DNA of 64,000 bases from a virus. Lineage: Duplodnaviria > Caudoviricetes. Positions 2,722 to 51,042 of the stretch are shown here, one piece after another (the first letter of the stretch is position 1; every line of letters starts with the position of its first letter). The stretch lies in IMG/VR virus record IMGVR_UViG_3300032038_000028, positions 48,853-112,852 of that record; one strand, written 5' to 3'. The notes under the pieces were generated by a model. It was not told the DNA's origin and did not search any database. It saw only the letters and a program-made list of their open reading frames with translations. The translations under genes and the position numbers were made by a program.

Positions 2722-5700
2722 TCAGCTGGCTTCTGCCAGCCTGTAACGGCACAGGTAGTAATATGTCCGCCCGTTGTAGGTCTTCGGGTACCATGAGTTG
2801 GTGTAGACCGGTTTGCCGCTGCCGGTCTCCGGGACGACGCGCAGGATGTCGCCCTTGGCGAACTGCTCCAGATAGCTGCCGTCCTTGATCGTCCACTCAT
2901 GGGTGCCACCGTCCTTCAGGCTGACTGCCGTAAAGGAGTAGGCCCACGGCTTGCCTGTCTTCTTGGACGTCAGGACGCGCACGTCGGACGTGACGTAGAG
3001 GAGAGCTTTGCCGTCGTTCCCCAGCGGTTCGACGTAGCCGAGGTACTCCATCTGGGCGCGGGCCCTTTCGGATGGCTTCGGCGGCGGGAGATGCTGAGAG
3101 CGGACATGGGCTTCGCACAGGGACAGGAGCTTCGGCATGTCGGTGATCGTCCAGCTCTTGAGCGTACCCGCCTTGCCCTGGTCGGTAGCGGCCGACTCAA
3201 TGATGCCCGACAGGCGGTAGGCTTCCACCTTGTCCTTGGCGACGCGGGTGAGCGTGCCCTTGTTGAGCTCGGTGAAGTAGGCGTTGATGGCGGTCAGCTC
3301 CGACGGATTGCCGAAGGCGGCGAAGAAGTCGAGCTGGATCAGGATGTCGAGCTGCAGGGAATTGAGGCTGGTCTCCTGGTCGATCACCTTCAGGACATCC
3401 ATGAAGGAAGCGTCCTGCGGCAGATGCTGAGCGGCTTCGTACAGCTGGTCAGCCACGTCTGCGTTCAGATGCTTGATGGACAGCAGCCCCTTGTAGATGA
3501 CGCCGTTTTCGGTATCGAACATGTAGTCGGCCCGGCTGTGGCCCCATCGTGGCGGGGAAACGGTGACGCCGTGGCTTCTGGCGTAGGCGATGACGGCCGC
3601 CGTCTTATCCGCCTTGTCGGCGTAGACGTTGAGCGCCGCCGCTACGAAGGGGAGCGGGTAGTGATAGCGCAGATAGCCGATGGCATAGCCGATCATTGCA
3701 TAGGCCAGGGCGTGGTTGCGGCTGAAGCTGTAGGAAGAGGCGTCCAGTATGGTCTGAATGAACGGCTTGACGATCTGCTGTGCCTTCTCCTTGGTGACGT
3801 CGTCGTAATGGGCCGGAGCGTATTCGACAAAGCGCCGCTCGATCTCCGGCAGAAGGGATTCCGTGCCCTTCTTCTTGGCGATGGCGCGGCGGACGCTGTC
3901 GGCTTCGCTGCCGGAGTAGCCGCAGAAGAGCTCCAGCCATTTCATAACTGTTTCCTGATAGGTTGCGAACCCGGCTTCGTCTGCGAGGAAATCATTCAGC
4001 GCCTTACAGCCGTTGTCGCGCACCTTCCCTTCCGCTACCTGATCACGGTAGGATGCGCTGCCGGGCCGGAGAAGGCCAGAGGCGAATGCGAACCAGTCGA
4101 TCATGCGGAAGCCAGGGTTGCGGGAGCGGGCCAGAGCGATGATGTCGGGGGACAGAAACTTCTTCAGATAGGCCGTGGCCTGTGCGGATTCAAACTGGAA
4201 GATGCAGGTCGTGTCTTCCCGGATGGACTGCCAGACCTTTGCGTCTTCCATGTCCATGTTGTCCGGCGTCAGCCGTTCGATGCCGGCGTAACGGCAGGCG
4301 CGGTTGATCAGGTCGTTGGAATCCAGCCCGAGCTCGTCCATCTTGACCAGATTCAGGCTGTCCAGCTCCTTCATGTTGAGGCAGGTGATGGGGTAGTTGG
4401 AGCCGGAGGAGGTACACAGACCGATCTCTGCGGCGACGTCGTGGTCGGTGACCAGCACGCCGCAGGGGTGAGACCCGTAGGAAACGACAGTGCCGCTGAC
4501 AATATCCACGTACTCAAACAGCTCCGGGTATTTTGCCCGCACCTCGTCCGGTACATTCCCATCTGCGTCCACCGCCTTGGTCAGCTTATCCACTTCATCC
4601 AGCGGCAGGTTGTCTGCCCGGGCGATGTCGCGGATGGCGCCCTTGGTGGCGATGGTGTTGAAGGTGATGATCTCCGCCGTCTGAATCCCGGAGAAACCCA
4701 TCTTGTCGTCCAGCAGATATTTCTTGGCCAGCTCCCGGTCTGCTTCGGCGTAGTCCACGTCGATGTCGGCGAGGGATACGCGCTCCGGGTTCATGAAGCG
4801 GAAGAAGTTGAGGCCGTACTCCATGGCGTCCACGTCGGTAATACCGGTGACGTAGGCACACATGGAGCCGGTGACGGATCCTCTGCCGTAGCCGGTGGCG
4901 ATGCCGTGTTCCTGTTCCCACATGTGCTGGTGATACTTGAGCGCCATGTAGGGGGAGGCGCCGCACTTTTCAAACACGGCCAGCTCCTCGTCCAGACGGC
5001 GGAACAGGGCTTCCCGCCCGTGCCGCTGCATGGCGTAGGGGTGGCGCTCCGCTGCCTGATACACTTCGTCCCGCCAGAGCTTCACCGGGTCGGCAAAGAC
5101 GTTGGGGTATTTGATGGAGCGGTCGACGGTGAAGGGCTCAATCATGTCGGCGAAGTGATTGGTCTCGTCGATGGCGGCCAGGAAGACAGCTTCGGGCAGG
5201 GAATTCTGAGCACGGTAAGCGTTGACCAGCTCGTCGTAGCTCATAAAGCGCAGGTTCCAGTCCGCTTCGTTGTCAAACCGGACGCCCTTGCCCTGCTGGA
5301 GCTTGACCCTGCCCCGGGCATGGCGCTCGTTGAGGGCGTGACTGTCTGTCCCGGCGATCAGCGGGATGCCATAGCGTTTGGAGTAATCCCACAGCTTCTG
5401 GTTGTACTGGGCCTGCTCGGCGACCAGATGGTGCTGGATCTCCAGCCAGCAGCGGCTCCTGTTTGCCCGCATGAAGCGGAGAAACCGCTCCTCGTCTTCC
5501 GACTTACCGTTGAGCGGGCCGCCCAGACAGGCGGAGGTGACGAGGATGTTGTCCGATGTCCCCTCCAGATCGTCCATGAAGATGCGGGGAACGTAGTAGA
5601 AGTGAGTGGTCTCCTTGCGCTCGAAGGAACCGGAGACCAGACGGTTCAGCTCCAGAAAGCCGTCGTAATTCCGGGCGTACAGGATGACGTGATAGTTGTC

Positions 5701-5949
5701 GCGCACCTTTTCCTCCGGGTGCATGGTGACATAGGCTTCCACGCCGTGCAGATACTTCATCCCGGCCTGCTCGACAGATTCTTTTTTGTGCAGCCACTCG
5801 TCGATGTTCCCGTGTTCCGAAAAGCCGAAGGCCTTTATGCCCAGCTCCGCCGCCCGGGCGGTGTACTGGTAGTACCGGGACACCGAGTCGATGTTGGTGG
5901 TGCAGTTGGACAGCATGGTATGTACGTGATAGGGGACGTAATTCTTCAT
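2722..5949 (-). CDS. dnaE: DNA polymerase III alpha subunit (C-family)
   Basis: PHP domain (HVH, EHGN, GVEAY, SACLGG, TDSH), GRGS, RFMNPER, catalytic DIDVD, KMDELGL, YSFSRNHALAY. Confidence 0.97.
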   Translation of the reverse strand: MKNYVPYHVHTMLSNCTTNIDSVSRYYQYTARAAELGIKAFGFSEHGNIDEWLHKKESVEQAGMKYLHGVEAYVTMHPEEKVRDNYHVILYARNYDGFLELNRLVSGSFERKETTHFYYVPRIFMDDLEGTSDNILVTSACLGGPLNGKSEDEERFLRFMRANRSRCWLEIQHHLVAEQAQYNQKLWDYSKRYGIPLIAGTDSHALNERHARGRVKLQQGKGVRFDNEADWNLRFMSYDELVNAYRAQNSLPEAVFLAAIDETNHFADMIEPFTVDRSIKYPNVFADPVKLWRDEVYQAAERHPYAMQRHGREALFRRLDEELAVFEKCGASPYMALKYHQHMWEQEHGIATGYGRGSVTGSMCAYVTGITDVDAMEYGLNFFRFMNPERVSLADIDVDYAEADRELAKKYLLDDKMGFSGIQTAEIITFNTIATKGAIRDIARADNLPLDEVDKLTKAVDADGNVPDEVRAKYPELFEYVDIVSGTVVSYGSHPCGVLVTDHDVAAEIGLCTSSGSNYPITCLNMKELDSLNLVKMDELGLDSNDLINRACRYAGIERLTPDNMDMEDAKVWQSIREDTTCIFQFESAQATAYLKKFLSPDIIALARSRNPGFRMIDWFAFASGLLRPGSASYRDQVAEGKVRDNGCKALNDFLADEAGFATYQETVMKWLELFCGYSGSEADSVRRAIAKKKGTESLLPEIERRFVEYAPAHYDDVTKEKAQQIVKPFIQTILDASSYSFSRNHALAYAMIGYAIGYLRYHYPLPFVAAALNVYADKADKTAAVIAYARSHGVTVSPPRWGHSRADYMFDTENGVIYKGLLSIKHLNADVADQLYEAAQHLPQDASFMDVLKVIDQETSLNSLQLDILIQLDFFAAFGNPSELTAINAYFTELNKGTLTRVAKDKVEAYRLSGIIESAATDQGKAGTLKSWTITDMPKLLSLCEAHVRSQHLPPPKPSERARAQMEYLGYVEPLGNDGKALLYVTSDVRVLTSKKTGKPWAYSFTAVSLKDGGTHEWTIKDGSYLEQFAKGDILRVVPETGSGKPVYTNSWYPKTYNGRTYYYLCRYRLAEAS

Positions 5950-6092
5950 GACTGCTCCTGTTGGTTGATGATGGGGTGTCTGGCGAACACTTCCTCCAGT
6001 GTCCAGCCCTGCTTATACATGTCCCAGACGTCAAAATACTGAAGGCCCGTCATTTCAGCCACCTGACGGATGGTGAATTCCCAGTCCGGCAT
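5946..6092 (-). CDS. small HTH-like protein (48 aa)
   Basis: MPDWEFTIRQVAEMTGLQYFDVWDMYKQGWTLEEVF, coupled to both neighbours; below the ORF-track cutoff. Confidence 0.55.
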   Translation of the reverse strand: MPDWEFTIRQVAEMTGLQYFDVWDMYKQGWTLEEVFARHPIINQQEQS

Positions 6093-8041
6093 CAGAAAGG
6101 CTCTCCTCCCTGTCCGCTCAACGTCAGGTACTTCTGCATATCGAAGAATGGAAGCTCGTCCTCATGCTCCTCCTTATCCCAGTTATAATGTTTCGCCAGC
6201 ATTTCCGGCGAATCATAGAAACGGCGGGACGGGATGTCGTAGAACAGCGGGATGATCTTGCCCAGAGCGCTTCCAAACCTGTCCTTGATGACGCGGAGCT
6301 GGACGTTGCAGTTGGTAAAGGGTTTTCTTCGCCCGGTCTTGCCGAGCTCCCGGTCTGAGTCCTGTACGCGGTACAGCGAGAAGATGCGGTGTGCCAGGTT
6401 GGCGCTGGACGTTACGCCGGACAGATCGAACAGATCAACCGGCCTGATCTCCATCATCTTCTTCGGGTGCAGGACGATCAGGAGAATGATATCCAGCCGC
6501 CGCGCCATCTCGACGCAGTCCCGGATGAAGACGTCCTGTTTGTGGTATTTGTTTTCCTCATTGGCTTCCAGATCCACGCTGGTCATGTTGTCCAGTACAA
6601 CTGTGCGGACACCGTAGCGTTTCACACAGGCTTCAATGGATTCCATGATGCGGGAAATCTGCGGAGACTCCGTATCCTTGTAGAAGTAGAGCTGGCCTTC
6701 ATAATACTGATTGATGCGCCTGCTGGCCTCCGGCTTGATACGGTATACCGTACGCCCGTCCTTCTGCTCGCTGATCAGGTTGGCCTGCCCGGCATGTACG
6801 AAGTCAATCCACGATTTAAGAAGTGGGTTGTTAAGCTCCCCGGAGTACACGAACGTCGGAAAACCCTGATCCACTGACTGGTTGATGATGGTGGACAGGA
6901 AGGAGCTTTTGCCGGAGCCGGTGATCCCAGTAATCAGATTGGTGGTTCCGCAGAACAGTTTGCCGATCGAAGAATCCAGCTCCTCGAATCCTGTTTTGAT
7001 GCCGTCCACGTCGTCCATGTTGAATTCCCTGACCTTGGTGTAGTCAGCGGCCGACATAATTTCCCGTTCCTTTGCGCTGTTGATGGCGTCGATGACGGCC
7101 TGCTTCCCGCCCCTGGCCAGCAGCTCGTTGAGATCCTTGACGTGATGCGGAACGCCGTTATCGTCCGTCCAGTGGTCGGGCACATCCACCACCTTGCAGC
7201 GGTATTCGCCAAGGCGCCGCGTAGCTTCCTTGACAAACTTCTGCCCGGCCTCGTCGTTGTCATGGATCAGGATGATCTCGGAAAACTGCTCCAGCCACGC
7301 CCAGTTCTGCGTGATGAACTGCAAATTTCCGTCCCCCATCGGGATGGATGTCGAGTTGGTGAACCCGCACTCATATGCGGCTGCGCAGTCGCCTTCTCCG
7401 CAGCAGATGATCAGGGGTTGGGTGATGTTGATGTGGTTCATATTGAACAGCAGGTGCATGGTGTCGCTCTTCATCCACCAGCACTTCATCTTGTCCACGC
7501 CCTTGCGGATAGGCCGGCTGGGCCGCACCTTGACGCAGCGGAGCACATCTTCCAGATCCCAGTAGCAGAAGCAGGTGTTGCCGCCGGTGTCCTGCATGAT
7601 ACCAAGAGCGTCGATGGTTTCAGGAGAGATACAGCGTTTCCGCCAGTAGGCGTAGACTTCATCCTTGTTGTCGGCCCATTCCGGCTTGGGGTAGGCGTAG
7701 TCCCGGTCGGTCGGGATGCCGCGGTAGGAGAAGTTGTGCGGCATATCAGCTTCCTGGAACAGCTTTTCGGCCGCCTGCAGGAAGGTATCTCCTGCGCTCA
7801 TCCATGCGTCGATGACGTCGTAGGTGGCATGGCATCCGAAACAGTAGAAGTTGTGGGCTCTCGGGTTATAGGAACAGCTTGGGGTGTCGTCGTGATGGGC
7901 AGGGTTGGGGCAGCACCCGATCCGGCGCTGAGGGTTATACTTTTCCAGCTTCATGACATCGGCGATGATCTCGGCATTCCGGTCGCCCAGACGCTCTTTT
8001 GCTTCTTCGATTCTTTCCCGGCTGATATTGGAGTCCATCAA
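6092..8041 (-). CDS. bifunctional primase-helicase (Zn-binding + TOPRIM + DnaB-like, T7 gp4/Twinkle type)
   Basis: CPNPAHHDDTPS..FYCFGC zinc finger; TOPRIM DNDEAG; Walker A GITGSGKS; VVLDN; LHPKK; KDRFG. Confidence 0.93.
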   Translation of the reverse strand: MMDSNISRERIEEAKERLGDRNAEIIADVMKLEKYNPQRRIGCCPNPAHHDDTPSCSYNPRAHNFYCFGCHATYDVIDAWMSAGDTFLQAAEKLFQEADMPHNFSYRGIPTDRDYAYPKPEWADNKDEVYAYWRKRCISPETIDALGIMQDTGGNTCFCYWDLEDVLRCVKVRPSRPIRKGVDKMKCWWMKSDTMHLLFNMNHINITQPLIICCGEGDCAAAYECGFTNSTSIPMGDGNLQFITQNWAWLEQFSEIILIHDNDEAGQKFVKEATRRLGEYRCKVVDVPDHWTDDNGVPHHVKDLNELLARGGKQAVIDAINSAKEREIMSAADYTKVREFNMDDVDGIKTGFEELDSSIGKLFCGTTNLITGITGSGKSSFLSTIINQSVDQGFPTFVYSGELNNPLLKSWIDFVHAGQANLISEQKDGRTVYRIKPEASRRINQYYEGQLYFYKDTESPQISRIMESIEACVKRYGVRTVVLDNMTSVDLEANEENKYHKQDVFIRDCVEMARRLDIILLIVLHPKKMMEIRPVDLFDLSGVTSSANLAHRIFSLYRVQDSDRELGKTGRRKPFTNCNVQLRVIKDRFGSALGKIIPLFYDIPSRRFYDSPEMLAKHYNWDKEEHEDELPFFDMQKYLTLSGQGGEPF

Positions 8042-13495: not shown

Positions 13496-14107
13496 TTACG
13501 CGCTCACCTCTGACAGGTAGTCCTTCCTGATCATCGTCAGCTCGGCGATGAAGGCGTCCAGCGATCCTGCGTCGAAGATGGCGACCTCCGACGATCCATT
13601 GGTAACCGTCAGGGTGCCGGTCTTTCCGTCCGTTTCCACTTCGTACTGGCACTCCAGACCCTTCAGCTTCACCGTACGTCTGCTGCTTACGACAGTGCAG
13701 ACTGGAGTGCGGGCTGTGACAACAGGGGCTGCAGTCACAGGTGCCGCCGGGACTTCCACAGGAGCCTGCGCTTCCGGCTGAAGTTTCTTTTTCCGGTTGG
13801 GCCCGAGATCAGCAATGTACTTTTTAACGGTCTTCCAGCTCAGGCCGACATGTTCCGCAATGGTGTTGATCGACTTGCCGTCCAGGTACATCTCCCGCAT
13901 GGAATCAACGAGCTTGGTGGTCACGACACAACGCTTGCCCTTCCTCGGCTGGACGGGCTGGCGAATGTCCGGGCCGATATAGCGGAGGATGGTGGCAGGA
14001 TGAACGTCCAGTCTCTCGGCGATCTGCCGGTTGGTGAGATGATCCTCGTTCCGCATGTGCAGAAGCTCGGCAACAGAAACAGATTTTGTCAGCGGTTCCT
14101 TTACCAT
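13496..14107 (-). CDS. double-HTH DNA-binding protein
   Basis: LTNRQIAERLDVHPATILRY and KSINTIAEHVGLSWKTVKKY; GAAGGAG SD. Confidence 0.8.
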   Translation of the reverse strand: MVKEPLTKSVSVAELLHMRNEDHLTNRQIAERLDVHPATILRYIGPDIRQPVQPRKGKRCVVTTKLVDSMREMYLDGKSINTIAEHVGLSWKTVKKYIADLGPNRKKKLQPEAQAPVEVPAAPVTAAPVVTARTPVCTVVSSRRTVKLKGLECQYEVETDGKTGTLTVTNGSSEVAIFDAGSLDAFIAELTMIRKDYLSEVSA

Positions 14108-14126
14108 ATGCGATTCTCCTTCCAAT

Positions 14127-14151
14127 AAAAAAGCACCCGGCGACCGGATGC
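14127..14151 (-). terminator. promoter-proximal intrinsic terminator
   Basis: GCATCCGG-TCG-CCGGGTGC followed by TTTTTT. Confidence 0.7.
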
Positions 14152-14165
14152 TGTTTTGTGGTTCC

Positions 14166-14194
14166 ATTATACAGTTTTGTGTGGGTGGTGTCAA
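14166..14194 (-). promoter_or_regulatory. consensus sigmaA promoter
   Basis: TTGACA-17 nt-TATAAT on the minus strand. Confidence 0.85.
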
Positions 14195-14200
14195 ATGAAG

Positions 14201-14234
14201 AGGGCTAACCGGGACGTACGTCCCGGTTAGCCCT
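14201..14234. repeat. perfect 34-bp palindrome
   Basis: AGGGCTAACCGGGACGT|ACGTCCCGGTTAGCCCT; its core recurs at 35630-35649. Confidence 0.95.
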
Positions 14235-14326
14235 AATAATGTCTCTTACCGGGGTAGTTGCCCCGATTACATTGTAACTCTGCAACGATCTTTGCCAGCT
14301 CCGCGGCCTCCGTTTCCGTCAAACCG

Positions 14327-27227: not shown

Positions 27228-27267
27228 AATTTACCTTCCTTTCTGGCTCCGTTGAGCCTGTACAATG

Positions 27268-27329
27268 TAGCCTGTCTCGTCAGTAACGGGCGGCCATTCC
27301 CGTCAGACCGCCCGAAGGCGGTTTCGACA
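27268..27329 (-). ncRNA. type II hammerhead ribozyme (HH1)
   Basis: GUC-GAAA-CCGCC(UUCG)GGCGG-UC^-UGACGGG(AAUGGCCG)CCCGUUA-CUGACGA-GAC; loop UGGCC can pair with 3' GGCUA. Confidence 0.93.
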
Positions 27330-34030: not shown

Positions 34031-34972
34031 ATGAGCGAACTGGCTTACAGGCATCAGGAGAGCAACATCTACACGGAGACCGAAGGCAACCTTACCAGGA
34101 TCTTCTTCGGCCAGAGCGAAGCGATGGGCGAGAACAGAGCACCGTCAGGTGCGGGATTTTTCGGCCAGAGCGAAGCGATGGACACTGCCGCGCCCGATCT
34201 CTATCAGGCCGCTACGACCGACGATCACCTGACGCCCCGCCAGAAGGAGCTCGCCAAACCCGACAGCCGTGACATGGCTGTCGTCCCCCTGGAGAGCTAC
34301 GATCAGGTGCGCAGCCTGATCGACTGGTTCGAGAGCAAACAGGATTACCGCGACGCCTGCCTGCTGACCTTCGGGTTCTGCACCGGCCTGCGGATCTCCG
34401 ACCTGCTGAACCTGAAGATCAGCGACATCGTGGAGAGCATCAAGCCCATGGTCTTCAAGCGGGCTATCGACATCCGCGAGCAGAAGACCGGCAAGCGCAC
34501 GGTCGGCCACCTTGACGACATGCTGATCACCCAGGCGATGCAGGAAGCCTTCAGCCGCTACATGGACAGGAAGCCCTACCCAGAGCTCGAGCCTGACCGT
34601 TATCTGTTCACGTCCATGTATACGCATGGCAACAAACCGATGAGCATCAGGGCGATCCAGAAAGTGCTGACTCCCGCCTTCGCAGCAGTCTGCCCCCACC
34701 TTCACTGCTCCACCCATACGATGCGCAAGACCTTCGTCTCGATCATTCACACCTTTGCGACCCAGGCCACGATGACCGGCGCCGGGATCAACCCCGCTAC
34801 CGCCTGCCAGATCGCCCTGCGTCACGCGAACGCCGCTACGACGATGGCGTACATGGGCACGATGAAGTCCGGGATGCTGTCCCTGCGCCAGGCCGTAAGT
34901 GATTTCGTGATGGGCAGGACCAAGATTCGCAGCCTGAAGACGCAGTATTCGTGGGAGCTCGTGGACGACTGA
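34031..34972 (+). CDS. tyrosine recombinase/integrase family protein
   Basis: TGLRISD (R), EQKTGK (K), THTMRKTF (HxxR), LRHANAATTMAY (H, Y). Confidence 0.93.
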   Translation: MSELAYRHQESNIYTETEGNLTRIFFGQSEAMGENRAPSGAGFFGQSEAMDTAAPDLYQAATTDDHLTPRQKELAKPDSRDMAVVPLESYDQVRSLIDWFESKQDYRDACLLTFGFCTGLRISDLLNLKISDIVESIKPMVFKRAIDIREQKTGKRTVGHLDDMLITQAMQEAFSRYMDRKPYPELEPDRYLFTSMYTHGNKPMSIRAIQKVLTPAFAAVCPHLHCSTHTMRKTFVSIIHTFATQATMTGAGINPATACQIALRHANAATTMAYMGTMKSGMLSLRQAVSDFVMGRTKIRSLKTQYSWELVDD

Positions 34973-35230
34973 GCCTGACAACGACCAGCTCCCACGTACC
35001 GAGACGCGCAGCGTCGAAGGTACATGGGAGACGATCGACGACTGAGACGCAGATGGCCGTAGAGCGACCGTAGCTCAATGTGGTGACCGGTGTAGCGGTC
35101 GGGTGGATATCTTGGTAGGGTAGAAAGACAGGGGCCGTCACACGTCGCTGAAGCGTCTCTACGACTATCGGGCCGCTACGAGCTGTGACGGAGCGGGCAG
35201 CGACGGGCCTGAGAATCATCGTCGTAGTGG

Positions 35231-35600
35231 TTTTTTTAAAAAAAATAAATCGGGGCGAAAGCCCCCTATAAATAATTTATATATTTTTAATTTACAACTA
35301 AATCGGGAAACAATGTATAAAGAGCTGTAATGCTAATCGAGCCCTATGGAATCAGGACTAGTAGTGTAACTTGAATAGGATATCAACTTGGTATGTTGAC
35401 TCTAAGGAATAGGTACTTGTGTACATCGGAGGTCGAGCCCTATAGTATAACGACCTGTACCGTTTCTTGAATAGAAGCAGGACTAGTCATGTATCTATCG
35501 TGAATAGAAGCTTGAGCCCTATTGTAAATCGACACACATTGCTAATCGACCTGTAACGTAATCAGGCTGTAATGTTTCTCTATATATAATATATAATAAG
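35231..35600. repeat. AT-rich region with interspersed short direct repeats (ori/att candidate)
   Basis: GAGCCCTAT x3, CAGGACTAGT x2, TGAATAGAAGC x2, TGCTAATCGA x2, CGACCTGTA x2; no credible ORF. Confidence 0.6.
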
Positions 35601-35629: not shown

Positions 35630-35649
35630 ACCGGGACGTACGTCCCGGT
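35630..35649. repeat. 20-bp palindrome ACCGGGACGTACGTCCCGGT
   Basis: Identical to the core of 14201-14234. Confidence 0.95.
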
Positions 35650-35664
35650 ATCCCGCTGCTCGAT

Positions 35665-35693
35665 TTGACCGGCCACCCCGCCCGTGGTATAAT
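35665..35693 (+). promoter_or_regulatory. sigmaA promoter
   Basis: TTGACC-17 nt-TATAAT with TG extension. Confidence 0.8.
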
Positions 35694-35977
35694 ATCCATG
35701 TCAGCAGGGGCGCGGTTTCGGCCGCGTTCTTTTTGTGCACAAAGAAAATGACCCGCGCAACATATCCGCCCTCATCGGGCTGCGCGAGCCATCTTCCTGT
35801 GGTTGTTCACCCAGACCATCTTGCAGATCCCTCAGCGCGGCGATCCCGTCCCTCGGGGCGGGCGAACGCTGTTGCGGTTGTTGCCGCTGCGTGCCTTCGC
35901 CGGGCACCACGGTTGGATATGCGCACCGCTTCTATGAGATGGCACTTCAGAGCACAGGCTGGCACAATACCCAAATT

Positions 35978-36119
35978 CATGCCGTGGCGGAACAGGTAGA
36001 CGCGCAGAGGCCAGGAGACAGGGGCAGGTTTAAACACCAACGGTGAGCTCCTATGGGTTCGACTCCCTCCGATGCGGGCAGTGCACGGCCCATGCAGGGT
36101 GCAGATCCCTGCCGGCATG
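35978..36119 (+). ncRNA. tRNA-like RNA 1 (no anticodon arm, long insert)
   Basis: Closing stem CATGCCG/CGGCATG; D arm GCG-GAACAGGTAGA-CGC; T arm GCAGGG-TGCAGAT-CCCTGC. Confidence 0.75.
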
Positions 36120-36164
36120 TTTCAGGGCGGAGACCACATGGCTCCGACCCTTAACTTTTATCCA

Positions 36165-36185
36165 GTCGCCTTCGGGCGGCTTTTT
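36165..36185 (+). terminator. intrinsic terminator
   Basis: GTCGCC-TTCG-GGCGGC followed by TTTTT. Confidence 0.8.
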
Positions 36186-36211
36186 CATTTACATCGAAAG
36201 GAGAGACCGAT

Positions 36212-36427
36212 ATGGACAAAATGAAGGAACTGCTTCTGGACTGCGCCAGACGGATCACGAAGGAGCTCACGGAGACCATTGAACCGGACAAGATCCCGAA
36301 TCTCAGCTACGCGATGAGCGGCATAGCGGACAGCTACACCGAGCTGGTAAAGCTGGAGAAGGCGCCGGACGCCGACCAGCAGACGGCCGCTCTCACGCAG
36401 CTGCTAAAACTTCTGGCAGAGGCATGA
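36212..36427 (+). CDS. hypothetical protein
   Basis: AAAGGAG SD. Confidence 0.7.
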   Translation: MDKMKELLLDCARRITKELTETIEPDKIPNLSYAMSGIADSYTELVKLEKAPDADQQTAALTQLLKLLAEA

Positions 36428-36431
36428 GCCT

Positions 36432-36803
36432 ATGGAGATTCTGAACACTGTAACTGGGAGCCCCGCCGGTACCGGAACGCTGATGGCATTGCTCATCGTT
36501 CTCATGGCACTGGCAGCGGCTGCGCTCGGTTATCTGATCTATCAGCTTTTCGATGCCATCAGAGATCGCGATCTCGACGGCGGTCTTGCAGCGCTGGTGG
36601 TTTTTAGCGGTGCGCTCTGTCTGCTCATGATCGTCTTCGGCTGGCGCGGGGTAGATAGGCTGCACAACGCCCGCGAGACCATCGTCTACGCCACCATCGA
36701 CGACAGCACCCCGTGGTCAGAGATCAACGAGCGCTACGAGCTGATCAGGCAGGACGGGAAGATCTATCAGCTGAGGCTGAGGGAGGAAGTCGGCCATGAG
36801 TAA
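36432..36803 (+). CDS. two-TM membrane protein
   Basis: Two hydrophobic helices and a soluble C-terminus. Confidence 0.7.
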   Translation: MEILNTVTGSPAGTGTLMALLIVLMALAAAALGYLIYQLFDAIRDRDLDGGLAALVVFSGALCLLMIVFGWRGVDRLHNARETIVYATIDDSTPWSEINERYELIRQDGKIYQLRLREEVGHE

Positions 36804-37629
36804 AGCACTGAGCGTGACGACGTTTGACAACAAGATGTTTGGTACCGTGCGCGGCGGAGAGATCAACGGGAAGCCGTGGTTTGTTGGCAGCGATCTTGCT
36901 GTGTCACTTGGGTACAAGAAACCTGCCAACGCGCTCCGCATGCATGTTCCAGAGAAGCATAAACGTCTGATGCGGCTGGATGATTCAGAGGGTTCTACCC
37001 TAAATCGGGGAGGAACTCCCAGCATGGGCGGCAACCCACACCACACTATCATCGACGAAGCCGGGATGTACCGGCTGATTTTCCACAGCAGGCTCAAGGC
37101 CGCTGACGACTTTGTCGAATGGGTCACGGCCGATGTCCTGCCGACACTGCGCAAGACCGGCACCTACTCGACCGGGGCCAGGCTGATAGCTCCTGATGTA
37201 CAGGCCCTGATGGATGGAAAGACGGACGACGAGATCCGGGTGGCGATGCAGCAGTACAACAACCGGGTAGCCGGAAACGCCAAACGCAAAGCAACCAACG
37301 CGGCAAAGCGGGCCGCCGAACACCTGAGTGATGATCAGATTGTAGTGGCCATCGCCCGGGCGATCAGCTCGAAGCTGTATGGCGGGCGTTTCGGCGAAGG
37401 GACGCTGGCAATGTATGACGTGATCGAGAGCCGGTGCCGGATCCCGCTGCGTGACAGGCAGAGGATGTGGCAGCTGGGGCGCGGCGTCGGAACGCCGTCG
37501 GGGAAGCGGAGCCTGTACTCCTTCATCCTGCCAGAAGAAATCCCGGGCGTGCTGCAGGCACTGACAGCGTACTGCTCGGAGAACGGTGCGGATATCAGCG
37601 GGATTGTCAGCAAGCGGAAGCCGCAGTGA
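36796..37629 (+). CDS. BRO-N domain (antirepressor-like) protein
   Basis: FDNKMFGTVR...PWFVGSDLAVSLGY...IIDEAGMYRLIF.S...FVEWVTADVLPTLRKTGTY. Confidence 0.92.
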   Translation: MSKALSVTTFDNKMFGTVRGGEINGKPWFVGSDLAVSLGYKKPANALRMHVPEKHKRLMRLDDSEGSTLNRGGTPSMGGNPHHTIIDEAGMYRLIFHSRLKAADDFVEWVTADVLPTLRKTGTYSTGARLIAPDVQALMDGKTDDEIRVAMQQYNNRVAGNAKRKATNAAKRAAEHLSDDQIVVAIARAISSKLYGGRFGEGTLAMYDVIESRCRIPLRDRQRMWQLGRGVGTPSGKRSLYSFILPEEIPGVLQALTAYCSENGADISGIVSKRKPQ

Positions 37630-37630
37630 T

Positions 37631-37659
37631 TTGCCAGCCGGAGCCGGATGTGGTATAAT
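37631..37659 (+). promoter_or_regulatory. sigmaA promoter
   Basis: TTGCCA-17 nt-TATAAT with TG extension. Confidence 0.75.
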
Positions 37660-37669
37660 ACAGTCATCA

Positions 37670-37697
37670 CCGGGGACAGACCCCGGGTTTCTTTTTT
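37670..37697 (+). terminator. promoter-proximal intrinsic terminator
   Basis: CCGGGG-ACAGA-CCCCGG followed by GTTTCTTTTTT. Confidence 0.7.
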
Positions 37698-37748
37698 ATT
37701 ACGTCATGCGGTACATCCGCGTGGCGTTTTTATATAAGGAGATCGTAC

Positions 37749-42798: not shown

Positions 42799-42915
42799 GA
42801 GCGGTGGCGGAATAGGTAGACGCTAAGACAAATGCGACGTGGGAACTACGGAGAATGTGCCGTCAGAATTCGAAGGGCATAAGAATTCATGTGAGGTGCA
42901 AATCCTCACCCGCTC
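42799..42915 (+). ncRNA. tRNA-like RNA 2 (no anticodon arm, long insert)
   Basis: Closing stem GAGCGG/CCGCTC; D arm GCG-GAATAGGTAGA-CGC; T arm GTGAGG-TGCAAAT-CCTCAC; intergenic. Confidence 0.78.
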
Positions 42916-48486: not shown

Positions 48487-51042
48487 ATGCAGGCGCCGCC
48501 GCTGTACATTGTCCGGTCGATTGATCTGAGGACGCTGGTCGCCAATGACTACGTGCTCAACATTTCGCCGGAGGAAGAAAAGAAATACCTGATCAAGCAG
48601 GCGGACAGCCCCTATCTGCGGCTGATCAGGCAGGTGACCGGGGTGACGTCAAGATATAACCCGTTCATCATCTTCGTTGACATCAACTACCACAAGGACA
48701 TCGCGCTGGTGATCTCGACGCTGGTGCGGAACGGGATCCGGGTGCGGGGCAGGAAGTTTGTGATGGCAGAGAGGAGCGCGTCCATGGTTCGCCAGGGCGT
48801 GCTTTCTTTTATCGACGCCGGGATCGCGGACATCATGCTGGAAAAGGTGACTATGGGGCTGAGCATCGGTGAAACGGTGCTCAGCAAATGGTACGCCTAC
48901 CGCGGCCTGCTGCTGAGCTCGGCTCACTGCGTGGAGGACTACCTGCCGAAATTCATTGTGGTGCCGGACTGGATGACGACCGTCAGCAATCAGCACATCC
49001 GGTACCTGTACGATGATAAAAAGACCTACGTCAACCAGGAAGGGAAGTCCTTCGAGTGGACGCAGAAGAACGTGGCCAGCGACATCCGCGACATCACGAT
49101 TAACGCGTTCGACGGCATGGGGATCATGCACAGGAACATCGCGGCCGAGATCGAGCGACGGACACACAGCACCACGCCGATCACCACCTGTATCTTTCGC
49201 GCCCCCTTCATCAAGGGCTGCCTGCATGCGATCGACTACGAGGCGTTCTTTGAGGAGCGCGGGGTTGAGTACATTCAGGATATCTGGGGCAGATACCACA
49301 GCGTCCACGATGAAATGGTTATCCTGACGGAGAGCATGTATAAGGGCCTCAAGTATTTCAAGCTTTATGGTGACAGTCGGGACTGGGATCGGTACTGGGA
49401 TCTGTTTCAGAAGTACGGCCACTGCATTGCGATCGCCCGGACAAACTTCACCGAAGACGAAGAGCCGGTGTACACCCGGAGCAACTATCAGATTTTGCAG
49501 ACGATGGATCTCCCGTATGCGGATTTCAGGCGTCTGGCGGATGAGAGTGTATACTGGATCAACAAGATCGTGGACGGCGACGAGCTGTACACCAAGTGCT
49601 TCCTCGGGATCGTGGACGGCAAGTGTAATGCCCTGAACCCGTACGTGGCAGCCATTGCGAAGAATGACGACATGATGCGGGAGCCGACGATCAGGCGGTA
49701 CGTGATCTCGCTGGTCGAGAAGTACATGGACGACATGAAGTGCGGGAAGCTGTACATCAAGTCATGCTTCAAGTTCGCCATGCCGGACATGATCGCCTTT
49801 CTGGAACACATCGGCGGCCTGCCGGTAAAAGGTGTGCTGGGGCCGGACGAATTCTGGACGCAGGCAAAGTATGTGAAGTACGACGGCGAATATCTGGTGA
49901 CGCGCAACCCGCACATCTGCAAGTCGGAGAACGTGGTGCTCAGGCAGAACAACGACCCGGAGATCCTGAAGTGGTGCGGGCATCTGACCAACGTGGCGAT
50001 GGTGAATGTAAAGAGTCTGGTAGCGCAGAGATTGAACGGGATGGATTTTGACGGGGACATCATCCTGATCAATGACCACCCCCTGATGCTGCAGGGGTCA
50101 GATAAGAACGCGCTGATCACCATTGACGTAGAGGACAAGGTGACGGCGTTGGCCGAAGAAGACACGGAGATCGGACGGATCGCCCTGATCTCCAGAACCA
50201 CGAAGAACATGATCGGCGAGTTCAGCAACTACGCCAGCGTGTATCTGAACCGCATCCCGCAGAAGGAAGAGCAGAAGAAGCGGTATGACGATTTCCTGTC
50301 GACGATCAGCGTGACCGTCGGAAAATCCATTGACTACGCAAAGACCGGGGTGCTGTACCCCATGCCGCGGGTGATCAGCAAATACGGCCGGCCGCTTCCA
50401 TACTTCATGCGCTACCGTTCACCCTACTACGCCAGACAGCAGCTGGCCCGGGCACCGAGCAACATGAACCGGCTGTGCTGGGAGCTGGAGCGGTGGGAGC
50501 GTGGGATACGCTGGAAGAAGGAAGGCCGGTTCGACTGGCATCTGATGTATGATGACAACGTGACCTACACCAACGAACAGTTTGAAGCAGTGGAAAAGCT
50601 CTTCCTGGATTTCTGCGCGGAGGTATCACGCGTCCAGAAATATCAGGCGTTGGTGCGGAAGTATCAGGCGAAGGATATCCGGGAGAAGTACACGAGGGCG
50701 GAAGCGTCCTCCTATATCGCCGATTGGGACAGCCTGTACCGGCGGTATAAGGAGCTGGGAAAACAGGTCTGCCCGGACGAGCGGGTGCTGGCCAACATCG
50801 GTGTGATCTTGACGTACGTCAAGTATAAATCCCGGGGAAAGAAGTTCCCGTGGATTGTGGCGCCGGACGGGCTGATTCAGAACATCCGCCCGAAAGACCT
50901 GATGTATATACCGGAACAGTGCGACGACGGAGCGTGTACCTATCTGGGCAAGCCGTACAAGCTGGTGCCCAAACTGGCGGATGATCTGGAGCTGAGCCTG
51001 GAGCCGGATATTTTTGATGATCTGGAGGGATGGAATGGTTGA
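48487..51042 (+). CDS. yonO: YonO-like single-subunit two-barrel RNA polymerase
   Basis: SASMVRQG, AFDGMG, RAPFIKG, VTRNPH, catalytic NGMDFDGD and IDYAKTG; upstream of SPbeta-like head genes. Confidence 0.88.
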   Translation: MQAPPLYIVRSIDLRTLVANDYVLNISPEEEKKYLIKQADSPYLRLIRQVTGVTSRYNPFIIFVDINYHKDIALVISTLVRNGIRVRGRKFVMAERSASMVRQGVLSFIDAGIADIMLEKVTMGLSIGETVLSKWYAYRGLLLSSAHCVEDYLPKFIVVPDWMTTVSNQHIRYLYDDKKTYVNQEGKSFEWTQKNVASDIRDITINAFDGMGIMHRNIAAEIERRTHSTTPITTCIFRAPFIKGCLHAIDYEAFFEERGVEYIQDIWGRYHSVHDEMVILTESMYKGLKYFKLYGDSRDWDRYWDLFQKYGHCIAIARTNFTEDEEPVYTRSNYQILQTMDLPYADFRRLADESVYWINKIVDGDELYTKCFLGIVDGKCNALNPYVAAIAKNDDMMREPTIRRYVISLVEKYMDDMKCGKLYIKSCFKFAMPDMIAFLEHIGGLPVKGVLGPDEFWTQAKYVKYDGEYLVTRNPHICKSENVVLRQNNDPEILKWCGHLTNVAMVNVKSLVAQRLNGMDFDGDIILINDHPLMLQGSDKNALITIDVEDKVTALAEEDTEIGRIALISRTTKNMIGEFSNYASVYLNRIPQKEEQKKRYDDFLSTISVTVGKSIDYAKTGVLYPMPRVISKYGRPLPYFMRYRSPYYARQQLARAPSNMNRLCWELERWERGIRWKKEGRFDWHLMYDDNVTYTNEQFEAVEKLFLDFCAEVSRVQKYQALVRKYQAKDIREKYTRAEASSYIADWDSLYRRYKELGKQVCPDERVLANIGVILTYVKYKSRGKKFPWIVAPDGLIQNIRPKDLMYIPEQCDDGACTYLGKPYKLVPKLADDLELSLEPDIFDDLEGWNG

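Follow-up and report, generated by a model that had tools for sequence, protein, structure and literature searches.

Small terminator-ended phage RNAs that lie antisense to early or regulatory transcripts are represented by lambda OOP, P22 sar, and P1/P7 c4, for which the promoters are defined and the targets mapped. In the lambda PR′–tR′ region, which is subject to Q antitermination, a strong promoter is followed by a terminator within a few tens of nucleotides. Weinberg et al. (2017; PMC5737381) described the FuFi-1 RNA (Rfam RF02986), a motif of unknown function that ends in a terminator, does not self-cleave, and seldom occurs in 5′ UTRs. In that year it was highlighted as a widespread RNA showing signs of a sophisticated function. 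A full-text literature search found no paper later than Weinberg et al. 2017 that names FuFi-1.

The locus described here is a 1.24-kb intergenic gap in a large phage, and a FuFi-1-like gene, a tRNA-like RNA, and the leader of an early operon are found within it. The window, that is, the whole stretch of 64,000 nucleotides that was analysed, forms the right-hand end (64 kb) of an IMG/VR virus record of 112,852 bp that CheckV rates complete, and all positions refer to the window unless another record is named. The features of the gap and its flanks are as follows.

34031–34972, tyrosine recombinase gene (Pfam PF00589), one flank of the gap.
35630–35649, perfect palindrome of 20 bp that ends 15 nt ahead of the −35 hexamer of P2; candidate regulator-binding site for P2 (repeat search).
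35665–35693, plus strand, P2, promoter of the sigma-70 type, close to consensus and having an extended −10 (TG): TTGACC, 17-nt spacer, TGgTATAAT, 11/12 matches.
35706–35738, plus strand, T1, promoter-proximal terminator-like hairpin and U-run: GC-core stem 35706–35731, then UUCUUUUUG (fold).
35738–35986, minus strand, FuFi-1-like RNA gene: Rfam match 35986→35745, well-supported core from about 35962 to 35738.
35978–36119, plus strand, anticodon-less tRNA-Leu-like RNA: acceptor 35978–35984/36113–36119, D arm 35986–36003, T arm 36094–36112.
36124–36151, plus strand, GC-rich hairpin without a U-run (folds).
36164–36190, plus strand, T2, UUCG-loop intrinsic terminator (terminator proper 36164–36181; terminator scan), last leader element.
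36197–36427, plus strand, SD (AAAGGAGAG) and first early gene (gene 36212–36427; coding score +0.455, GC3 0.78).
36212 onward, plus strand, run of small genes, the other flank of the gap.
36796–37629, plus strand, Bro-N gene within the small-gene run, 0.6 kb from the FuFi-1-like setting.

The gap is non-coding, as the earlier note on this DNA had judged from the overlapping ORF calls: ORFs overlapping 35701–36282 score −0.24 to −0.44 log-likelihood per codon with flat GC1/2/3, the real neighbouring genes score +0.28 to +0.48 with GC3 of 0.70–0.85, and a Pfam search of the overlapping ORFs gave zero hits. A 127-codon minus-strand ORF (34836–35219), which runs into the 3′ end of the recombinase gene, is unlikely to be a real gene, since its codon score is non-coding (−0.48) and its product of low complexity. 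Between the recombinase gene and P2 lies an AT-rich block of interleaved short direct repeats (35270–35600; in the related phage L002, 4990–5780), which resembles an iteron-type origin or else a site of recombination. Direct terminal repeats are present in the relative G001.

The central part of the gap had been read in the earlier note as a plus-strand multibranch domain (35761–35921). The GC-rich hairpins and the closing CATATCC/GGATATG helix assigned to it do appear in the plus-strand minimum free energy (MFE) structure, but the fold as a whole is at chance level (z = +0.25; equalled or bettered by 116 of 200 shuffles), and the domain is not upheld as a plus-strand structure. Searching it against Rfam yielded one significant match, FuFi-1, on the minus strand, and none on the plus strand at E ≤ 10; the MFE of the minus strand is −105.9 vs −90.4 kcal/mol for the plus strand (minus-strand z = −1.57) and recovers both the P1 helix and the terminator of FuFi-1. 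These results bear directly on the model in which P2 and T2 bound a single plus-strand RNA of about 490 nt with a functional multibranch domain at 35761–35921. That model draws on the strength of P2 and T2, on the described helices of the plus-strand MFE structure, on the hairpin CCCGUCCC/GGGGCGGG, which is perfect on the plus strand only, its U–G pair becoming a C–A mismatch on the minus strand, and on the sibling element tl2 described below, which shows that tRNA-like elements are co-transcribed with flanking sequence. We nevertheless consider it improbable, given the chance-level fold, the lack of a plus-strand Rfam hit where the minus strand matches FuFi-1, the position of T1 directly after the start site, and the use of the same promoter design elsewhere to drive protein genes. 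What survives of the proposed phage ncRNA operon next to the recombinase is a non-coding segment with RNA genes beside that gene; it is not one plus-strand promoter-to-terminator unit, the central domain lying on the minus strand and P2 being the promoter of the early operon.

The RF02986 match, confined to the minus strand, scores 43.8 bits (E 6.3e-8 in the 1.1 kb searched, 1.5e-9 per 113-kb genome), which is below the Rfam gathering cut-off of 59.6 bits for this family. None of 50 unrelated viral records searched, which are integrase relatives, matches RF02986 at E ≤ 0.01. Among about 300 Clostridia genomes, every inspected hit of 35–52 bits has the invariant linker and all but one adjoin Cro/CI-type genes; by linker and setting, these sub-threshold hits are classed as genuine FuFi-1 members. 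Since no unrelated record is hit and the inspected Clostridia hits carry the linker, the match at this locus is not noise. Its recognizable parts, all on the minus strand, are the following.

35816–35942, minus strand, junction domain: P1 CCAUCU (35942–35937)/AGAUGG (35821–35816), holding CAUAGAA (35936–35930), a GC-rich expanded interior, and CUGCAA (35826–35821).
35793–35812, minus strand, conserved linker GGGUGAACAA...GGAAG, the most invariant family sequence.
35738–35793, minus strand, intrinsic terminator: stem 35793–35781/35759–35747, U-tract 35748–35738.

The P1 helix pairs in 6/6 positions and stands in exact register with CAUAGAA and CUGCAA, where the family has AUAGAA on the 5′ side and UGCA on the 3′ side. 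Its sequence varies yet stays paired in L082, L098, L101, L107, and L123, the variants among members being AUGCGU/ACGCAU, GCAUAU/AUAUGU, GUCUGU/GCAGAU, and GCUUGU/ACAAGU. The other two junction helices (P2 and P3 of the Rfam alignment, distinct from the promoters of those names) pair in 5/7 and 5/8 positions, and the MFE structure of the interior is one long branched stem. An insert of about 80 nt occupies the second junction hairpin; L082, L098, and L101 carry one at the same place, and a large insert there is therefore normal for the family. The linker reads GGGUGAACAA-CCACA-GGAA at the family spacing, the family form being GGGUAAACAAAUUUGG, of which the AAAUUU part is replaced here. This block occurs in every member fetched, minimal ones included, and L122 also has GGGUGAACAA. 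Downstream, the terminator stem of at least 13 bp is followed by UCAUUUUCUUUGUG on the minus strand; three of its pairs are G–U and would be mismatches on the plus strand, and the terminator abuts T1 tail-to-tail through a shared A/T palindrome (35727–35748).

The likeness to FuFi-1 thus comprises the P1-closed junction with its AUAGAA/UGCA flanks, the GGGURAACAA...GG linker, the Rho-independent terminator, the variable large insert in the second junction hairpin, the phage-borne location, and a strong promoter placed head-on. Concerning the last point, an opposite-strand promoter with at least 9/12 matches faces the FuFi-1 3′ end from a distance of 18–120 nt in seven of the ten loci scanned, and here P2 faces the FuFi-1-like gene head-on, its −10 hexamer ending 52 nt from the Rfam 3′ end. 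Unlike canonical FuFi-1, the element scores below the gathering threshold, is GC-rich, and is without the conserved 5′ hairpin loop; unlike the full-length members, it has no promoter, SD, or micro-ORF in a 5′ extension. It also departs from the family in its setting. Of ten family loci, nine have a Cro/CI-type HTH gene no more than about 250 nt away, and in 6 of the 10 a cI-like gene with the same orientation follows FuFi-1 directly, whereas the element described here resides in a 113-kb phage and abuts a tRNA-like gene, and Pfam annotation of its neighbours revealed no Cro/CI gene next to it, only the tyrosine recombinase and small genes without Pfam matches, with Bro-N 0.6 kb off. Taken on these features, the element is classed as a diverged, 5′-truncated, GC-rich variant of the catalogued FuFi-1 and not as a new class. 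No close homologue was found by blastn against phage records, and pattern scans of viral, genome, and metagenome collections returned solely canonical FuFi-1 (L082, L098, L101) or chance hits; a near-identical phage fragment (98% in DnaE) does not cover the FuFi-1-like region. When the phage genome was searched for a trans target of the linker, only 9–10-mers at chance level were found, and the idea that the linker is a DNA operator half-site was rejected, as GTGAACA/TGTTCAC is not enriched. Two cases of ribozyme-like sequence may be recorded separately: a type II hammerhead ribozyme at 27266–27329 on the minus strand (49 bits vs an Rfam cut-off of 37), and sub-threshold twister-sister (1768–1834) and HDV-like (721–780) hits upstream of the recombinase in L002.

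The seven full-length members fetched (L082, L098, L101, L107, L108, L122, and L123) share a 5′ extension, about 90 nt upstream of each Rfam FuFi-1 match, that the Rfam model does not include. Its sigma-70 promoter, at a distance of 67–109 nt, is followed by a short hairpin and then by an SD with a micro-ORF. The micro-ORF starts M-T-K-L-L-x-L-P-V-P-D, and synonymous codon differences between members suggest that it is translated. A 5′ hairpin with a conserved GCAGAACC..ACUGC element, then AAGUGA, follows in the full-length members. A profile of this family 5′ region found nothing in the window, and a minus-strand promoter scan gave no site reaching 8/12 and zero −10-like hexamers in 35930–36300. 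What is left of the 5′ hairpin is a short stem and CUGAAGUG, the outer stem pairing in 5/7 positions, and the hairpin as aligned by Rfam overlaps the acceptor of the tRNA-like RNA by 8 nt. The complement of the tRNA-like element was considered as a source of the family 5′ extension or micro-ORF and rejected: its two short matches, CCUGUUCC and GGGAGUCG, can be put down to the D arm and to a hairpin resembling a T arm, and the family 5′-region profile gave no hit.

These absences lead to the main rival explanation, according to which the element is a recently truncated relic, namely an inactive 3′ remnant of a full FuFi-1 whose promoter, micro-ORF, and 5′ hairpin were overwritten by the arriving tRNA-like element, so that only the plus-strand leader (P2, tRNA-like RNA, and T2) works. 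The undetectable minus-strand promoter and the missing 5′ extension fit this explanation, as does the overlap between acceptor and poorly paired hairpin; furthermore, the tRNA-like RNA needs plus-strand transcription across the segment, unless a weak promoter candidate with 8/12 matches at 35939–35968 serves it. A relic is harder to reconcile with the intactness of P1 (6/6), the invariant linker, the 13-bp terminator stem, and the U-tract. Natural minimal members without the 5′ domains (L108, L125, and L126) also speak against it, since their existence means that the family tolerates loss of these domains, although at least L108 and L125 retain a clear promoter. A further objection is that the phage has a non-sigma-70 RNA polymerase, the promoters of which would be invisible to the scan. 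On balance, we regard the relic explanation as rather unlikely, while giving it serious consideration.

The polymerase in question is an 851-aa protein (48487–51042, plus strand) that matches the Pfam RdRP family PF05183 (E 4e-14), which suggests a YonO-like single-subunit RNA polymerase. With such a gene, part of the phage may use promoters that a sigma-70 scan does not see. Among the other genes of the phage are those for a DnaE-like Pol III alpha (2722–5949, minus strand) and a primase-helicase (6092–8041, minus strand). A bolder proposal, which we hold to be improbable, is that of a two-faced locus, in which transcription of a FuFi-1 core that has no promoter would be due to the YonO-like polymerase or would start inside the tRNA-like gene. 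This core would form, together with the tRNA-Leu-like RNA lying back-to-back with it, a portable module gating read-through of the early operon.

On the plus strand, the tRNA-Leu-like element keeps the acceptor, D, and T arms of tRNA-Leu; its D arm is of the tRNA-Leu type, its 7-bp acceptor and T stems are seen in the MFE as well as in the centroid structure, and the T loop is UGCAGAU. Unlike a tRNA, it has an insert of about 90 nt in place of the anticodon and variable region, where the anticodon arm would be expected, and CCA is not encoded. The earlier description as a tRNA-like RNA stands in respect of these three arms, but it does not extend to a tRNA proper: the anticodon arm is absent, ARAGORN found no tRNA, and the Rfam tRNA model RF00005 gave no hit at E ≤ 10. 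Two siblings were recognized.

42799–42915, tl2, insert of about 67 nt; acceptor and T stems differ in sequence and are still paired.
L239, about 1500–1712 (relative G001), third copy, insert of about 155 nt.

The tRNA-like family is common to both related large phages, at positions that differ between them. As tl2 sits tightly between two genes without a promoter of its own, it must be co-transcribed with them and cut out. By analogy with tl2, the tRNA-like RNA at 35978–36119 probably arises by processing of a longer transcript that starts at P2, the only nearer promoter candidate being the weak 8/12 site mentioned above. A scan for junctions of FuFi and tRNA-like elements returned 110 loci, none of which has the FuFi core pattern, and they are therefore probably ordinary tRNA-Leu genes or tRNA-like elements. 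An 11-nt repeat, TGCAGATCCCT (35822 and 36100), is put down to coincidence, as its sequence is that of the T-loop shared by the tRNA-like family.

The promoter, hairpin, and terminator signals of the earlier note are borne out: the promoter has the consensus matches and spacer given above, the early terminator-like hairpin (set at 35708–35734) folds at 35706–35731 with a U-run after it, the further hairpin following the tRNA-like RNA folds at 36124–36151, and the UUCG terminator is found at 36164–36181 by both terminator scan and fold. The T1 hairpin is absent from the list of the consensus terminator scan. Sites with at least 11/12 matches are rare, only five occurring on both strands of the window in the promoter consensus scan, and three of them (33961, 35665, and 37631) are on the plus strand within 3.7 kb. 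P2 is one of four similarly built early promoters, the others being at 37631 (plus strand; P3), at 14194 (minus strand; 12/12 matches), and in L002, a related 107-kb phage whose recombinase is 46% identical. They form the following modules.

14105–14240, minus strand, early-promoter module.
35630–35738, plus strand, early-promoter module containing P2.
37631–37748, plus strand, early-promoter module containing P3.
L002, 5787–5912, early-promoter module.

The shared design runs from a near-consensus promoter through 12–16 nt to a GC hairpin with a U-run, often followed by a second one, then to an SD and a start codon; the promoters have a 17-nt spacer, mostly with TG, and one or two terminator-like hairpins downstream. 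A device like T1 follows P3 at 37670–37686 and is also found after the 14194 and L002 promoters. P2 and the 14194 promoter share, in addition, a perfect palindrome of 20–32 bp centred near −61; the second copy of the 20-bp palindrome is at 14208–14227, 14 nt upstream of the −35 at 14194, and the 113-kb genome contains no third copy. Such a recurrent module suggests control by antitermination or by an activator. Because the design of P2, with promoter, hairpin or hairpins, SD, and gene, recurs, it is most likely that P2 serves the protein genes from 36212 onward.

The leader of L002 shows the same layout without a cassette. Its hairpins are about 20 nt apart, and the second has the ...ATTTAC...AGGAG tail of T2, whose position and ...TTTT(C/T)ATTTAC... 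tail are common to both; the distance from T1 to T2 here is about 430 bp (35739–36163). From the recurrence of the design at other promoters, and from an L002 leader without the non-coding elements, the non-coding stretch seems to be an insertion: a cassette of about 430 bp placed within a standard early leader. Flanking inverted repeats around the cassette were sought in a repeat search and not found.

The arrangement of P2 and an intrinsic-terminator-like hairpin soon after it, ahead of genes to be expressed, is reminiscent of lambda PR′–tR′, the difference being that no Q-like protein or qut site was identified here; the promoter-proximal hairpins may be leaky, or may instead be mRNA-stabilizing 5′ structures. 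A related explanation takes the plus-strand RNA as a cis-acting antitermination or processing leader resembling put of HK022, which modifies RNA polymerase or directs processing such that T1 and T2 are read through, the similarity to FuFi-1 being incidental. In favor of such a leader, P2 and other promoters of the phage are separated from their genes by two terminator-like hairpins; against it, those other promoters and L002 manage with short cassette-free leaders, and no known antitermination RNA family matches in the Rfam scan. We therefore judge it very improbable.

The explanation that we favor, and to which we assign a little better than an even chance, is that the gap holds the composite leader of a rightward early operon, into which a cassette of about 430 bp carries an antisense FuFi-1-like gene and a sense anticodon-less tRNA-Leu-like RNA, with a function that we infer. 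In this composite leader, a transcript that starts at P2 and gets past T1 would be antisense to the FuFi-1-like gene and would continue across the tRNA-like RNA and T2 to reach the early genes. This read-through may be damped or timed by the minus-strand RNA or by the act of its transcription, either by antisense pairing or by interference between convergent transcription; the invariant GGGURAACAA...GG linker would be the likely contact site for a partner, and the tRNA-like element would be co-transcribed and cut out. In favor of the composite leader we count the minus-only RF02986 match, the P1 covariation, the G–U pairs of the terminator, the minus-strand MFE, the head-on promoter, the recurrent promoter design, the cassette-free L002, the non-coding region, the covarying tRNA-like copies, and the YonO-like RNA polymerase gene. 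Counted against it are the score of 43.8 bits below 59.6, the absence of a minus-strand promoter and of the 5′ extension and hairpin loop, the weak junction helices P2 and P3, the perfect hairpin seen on the plus strand only, and the absence of a close homologue and of an adjoining Cro/CI gene. With its antisense, terminator-ended element at a phage control region, the composite leader may work in a way comparable to lambda OOP, P22 sar, and P1/P7 c4; this is a functional analogy and nothing more, as there is neither sequence nor structural relation.

If the two-faced locus should prove true, FuFi-1 would have its functional core in the P1 junction, the linker, and the terminator, and could dispense with the micro-ORF and the 5′ hairpin. 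More generally, the locus presents a stripped-down copy outside a cI/cro switch, in a large GC-rich phage with its own RNA polymerase, and still facing a strong early promoter. The features of the family that probably count are thereby narrowed down to four: its P1 junction, its invariant linker, its terminator, and its antisense position. This phage and L002 constitute a natural pair in which the cassette is present and absent, respectively. For the family as a whole, the finding means that the Rfam cut-off misses real FuFi-1 variants.
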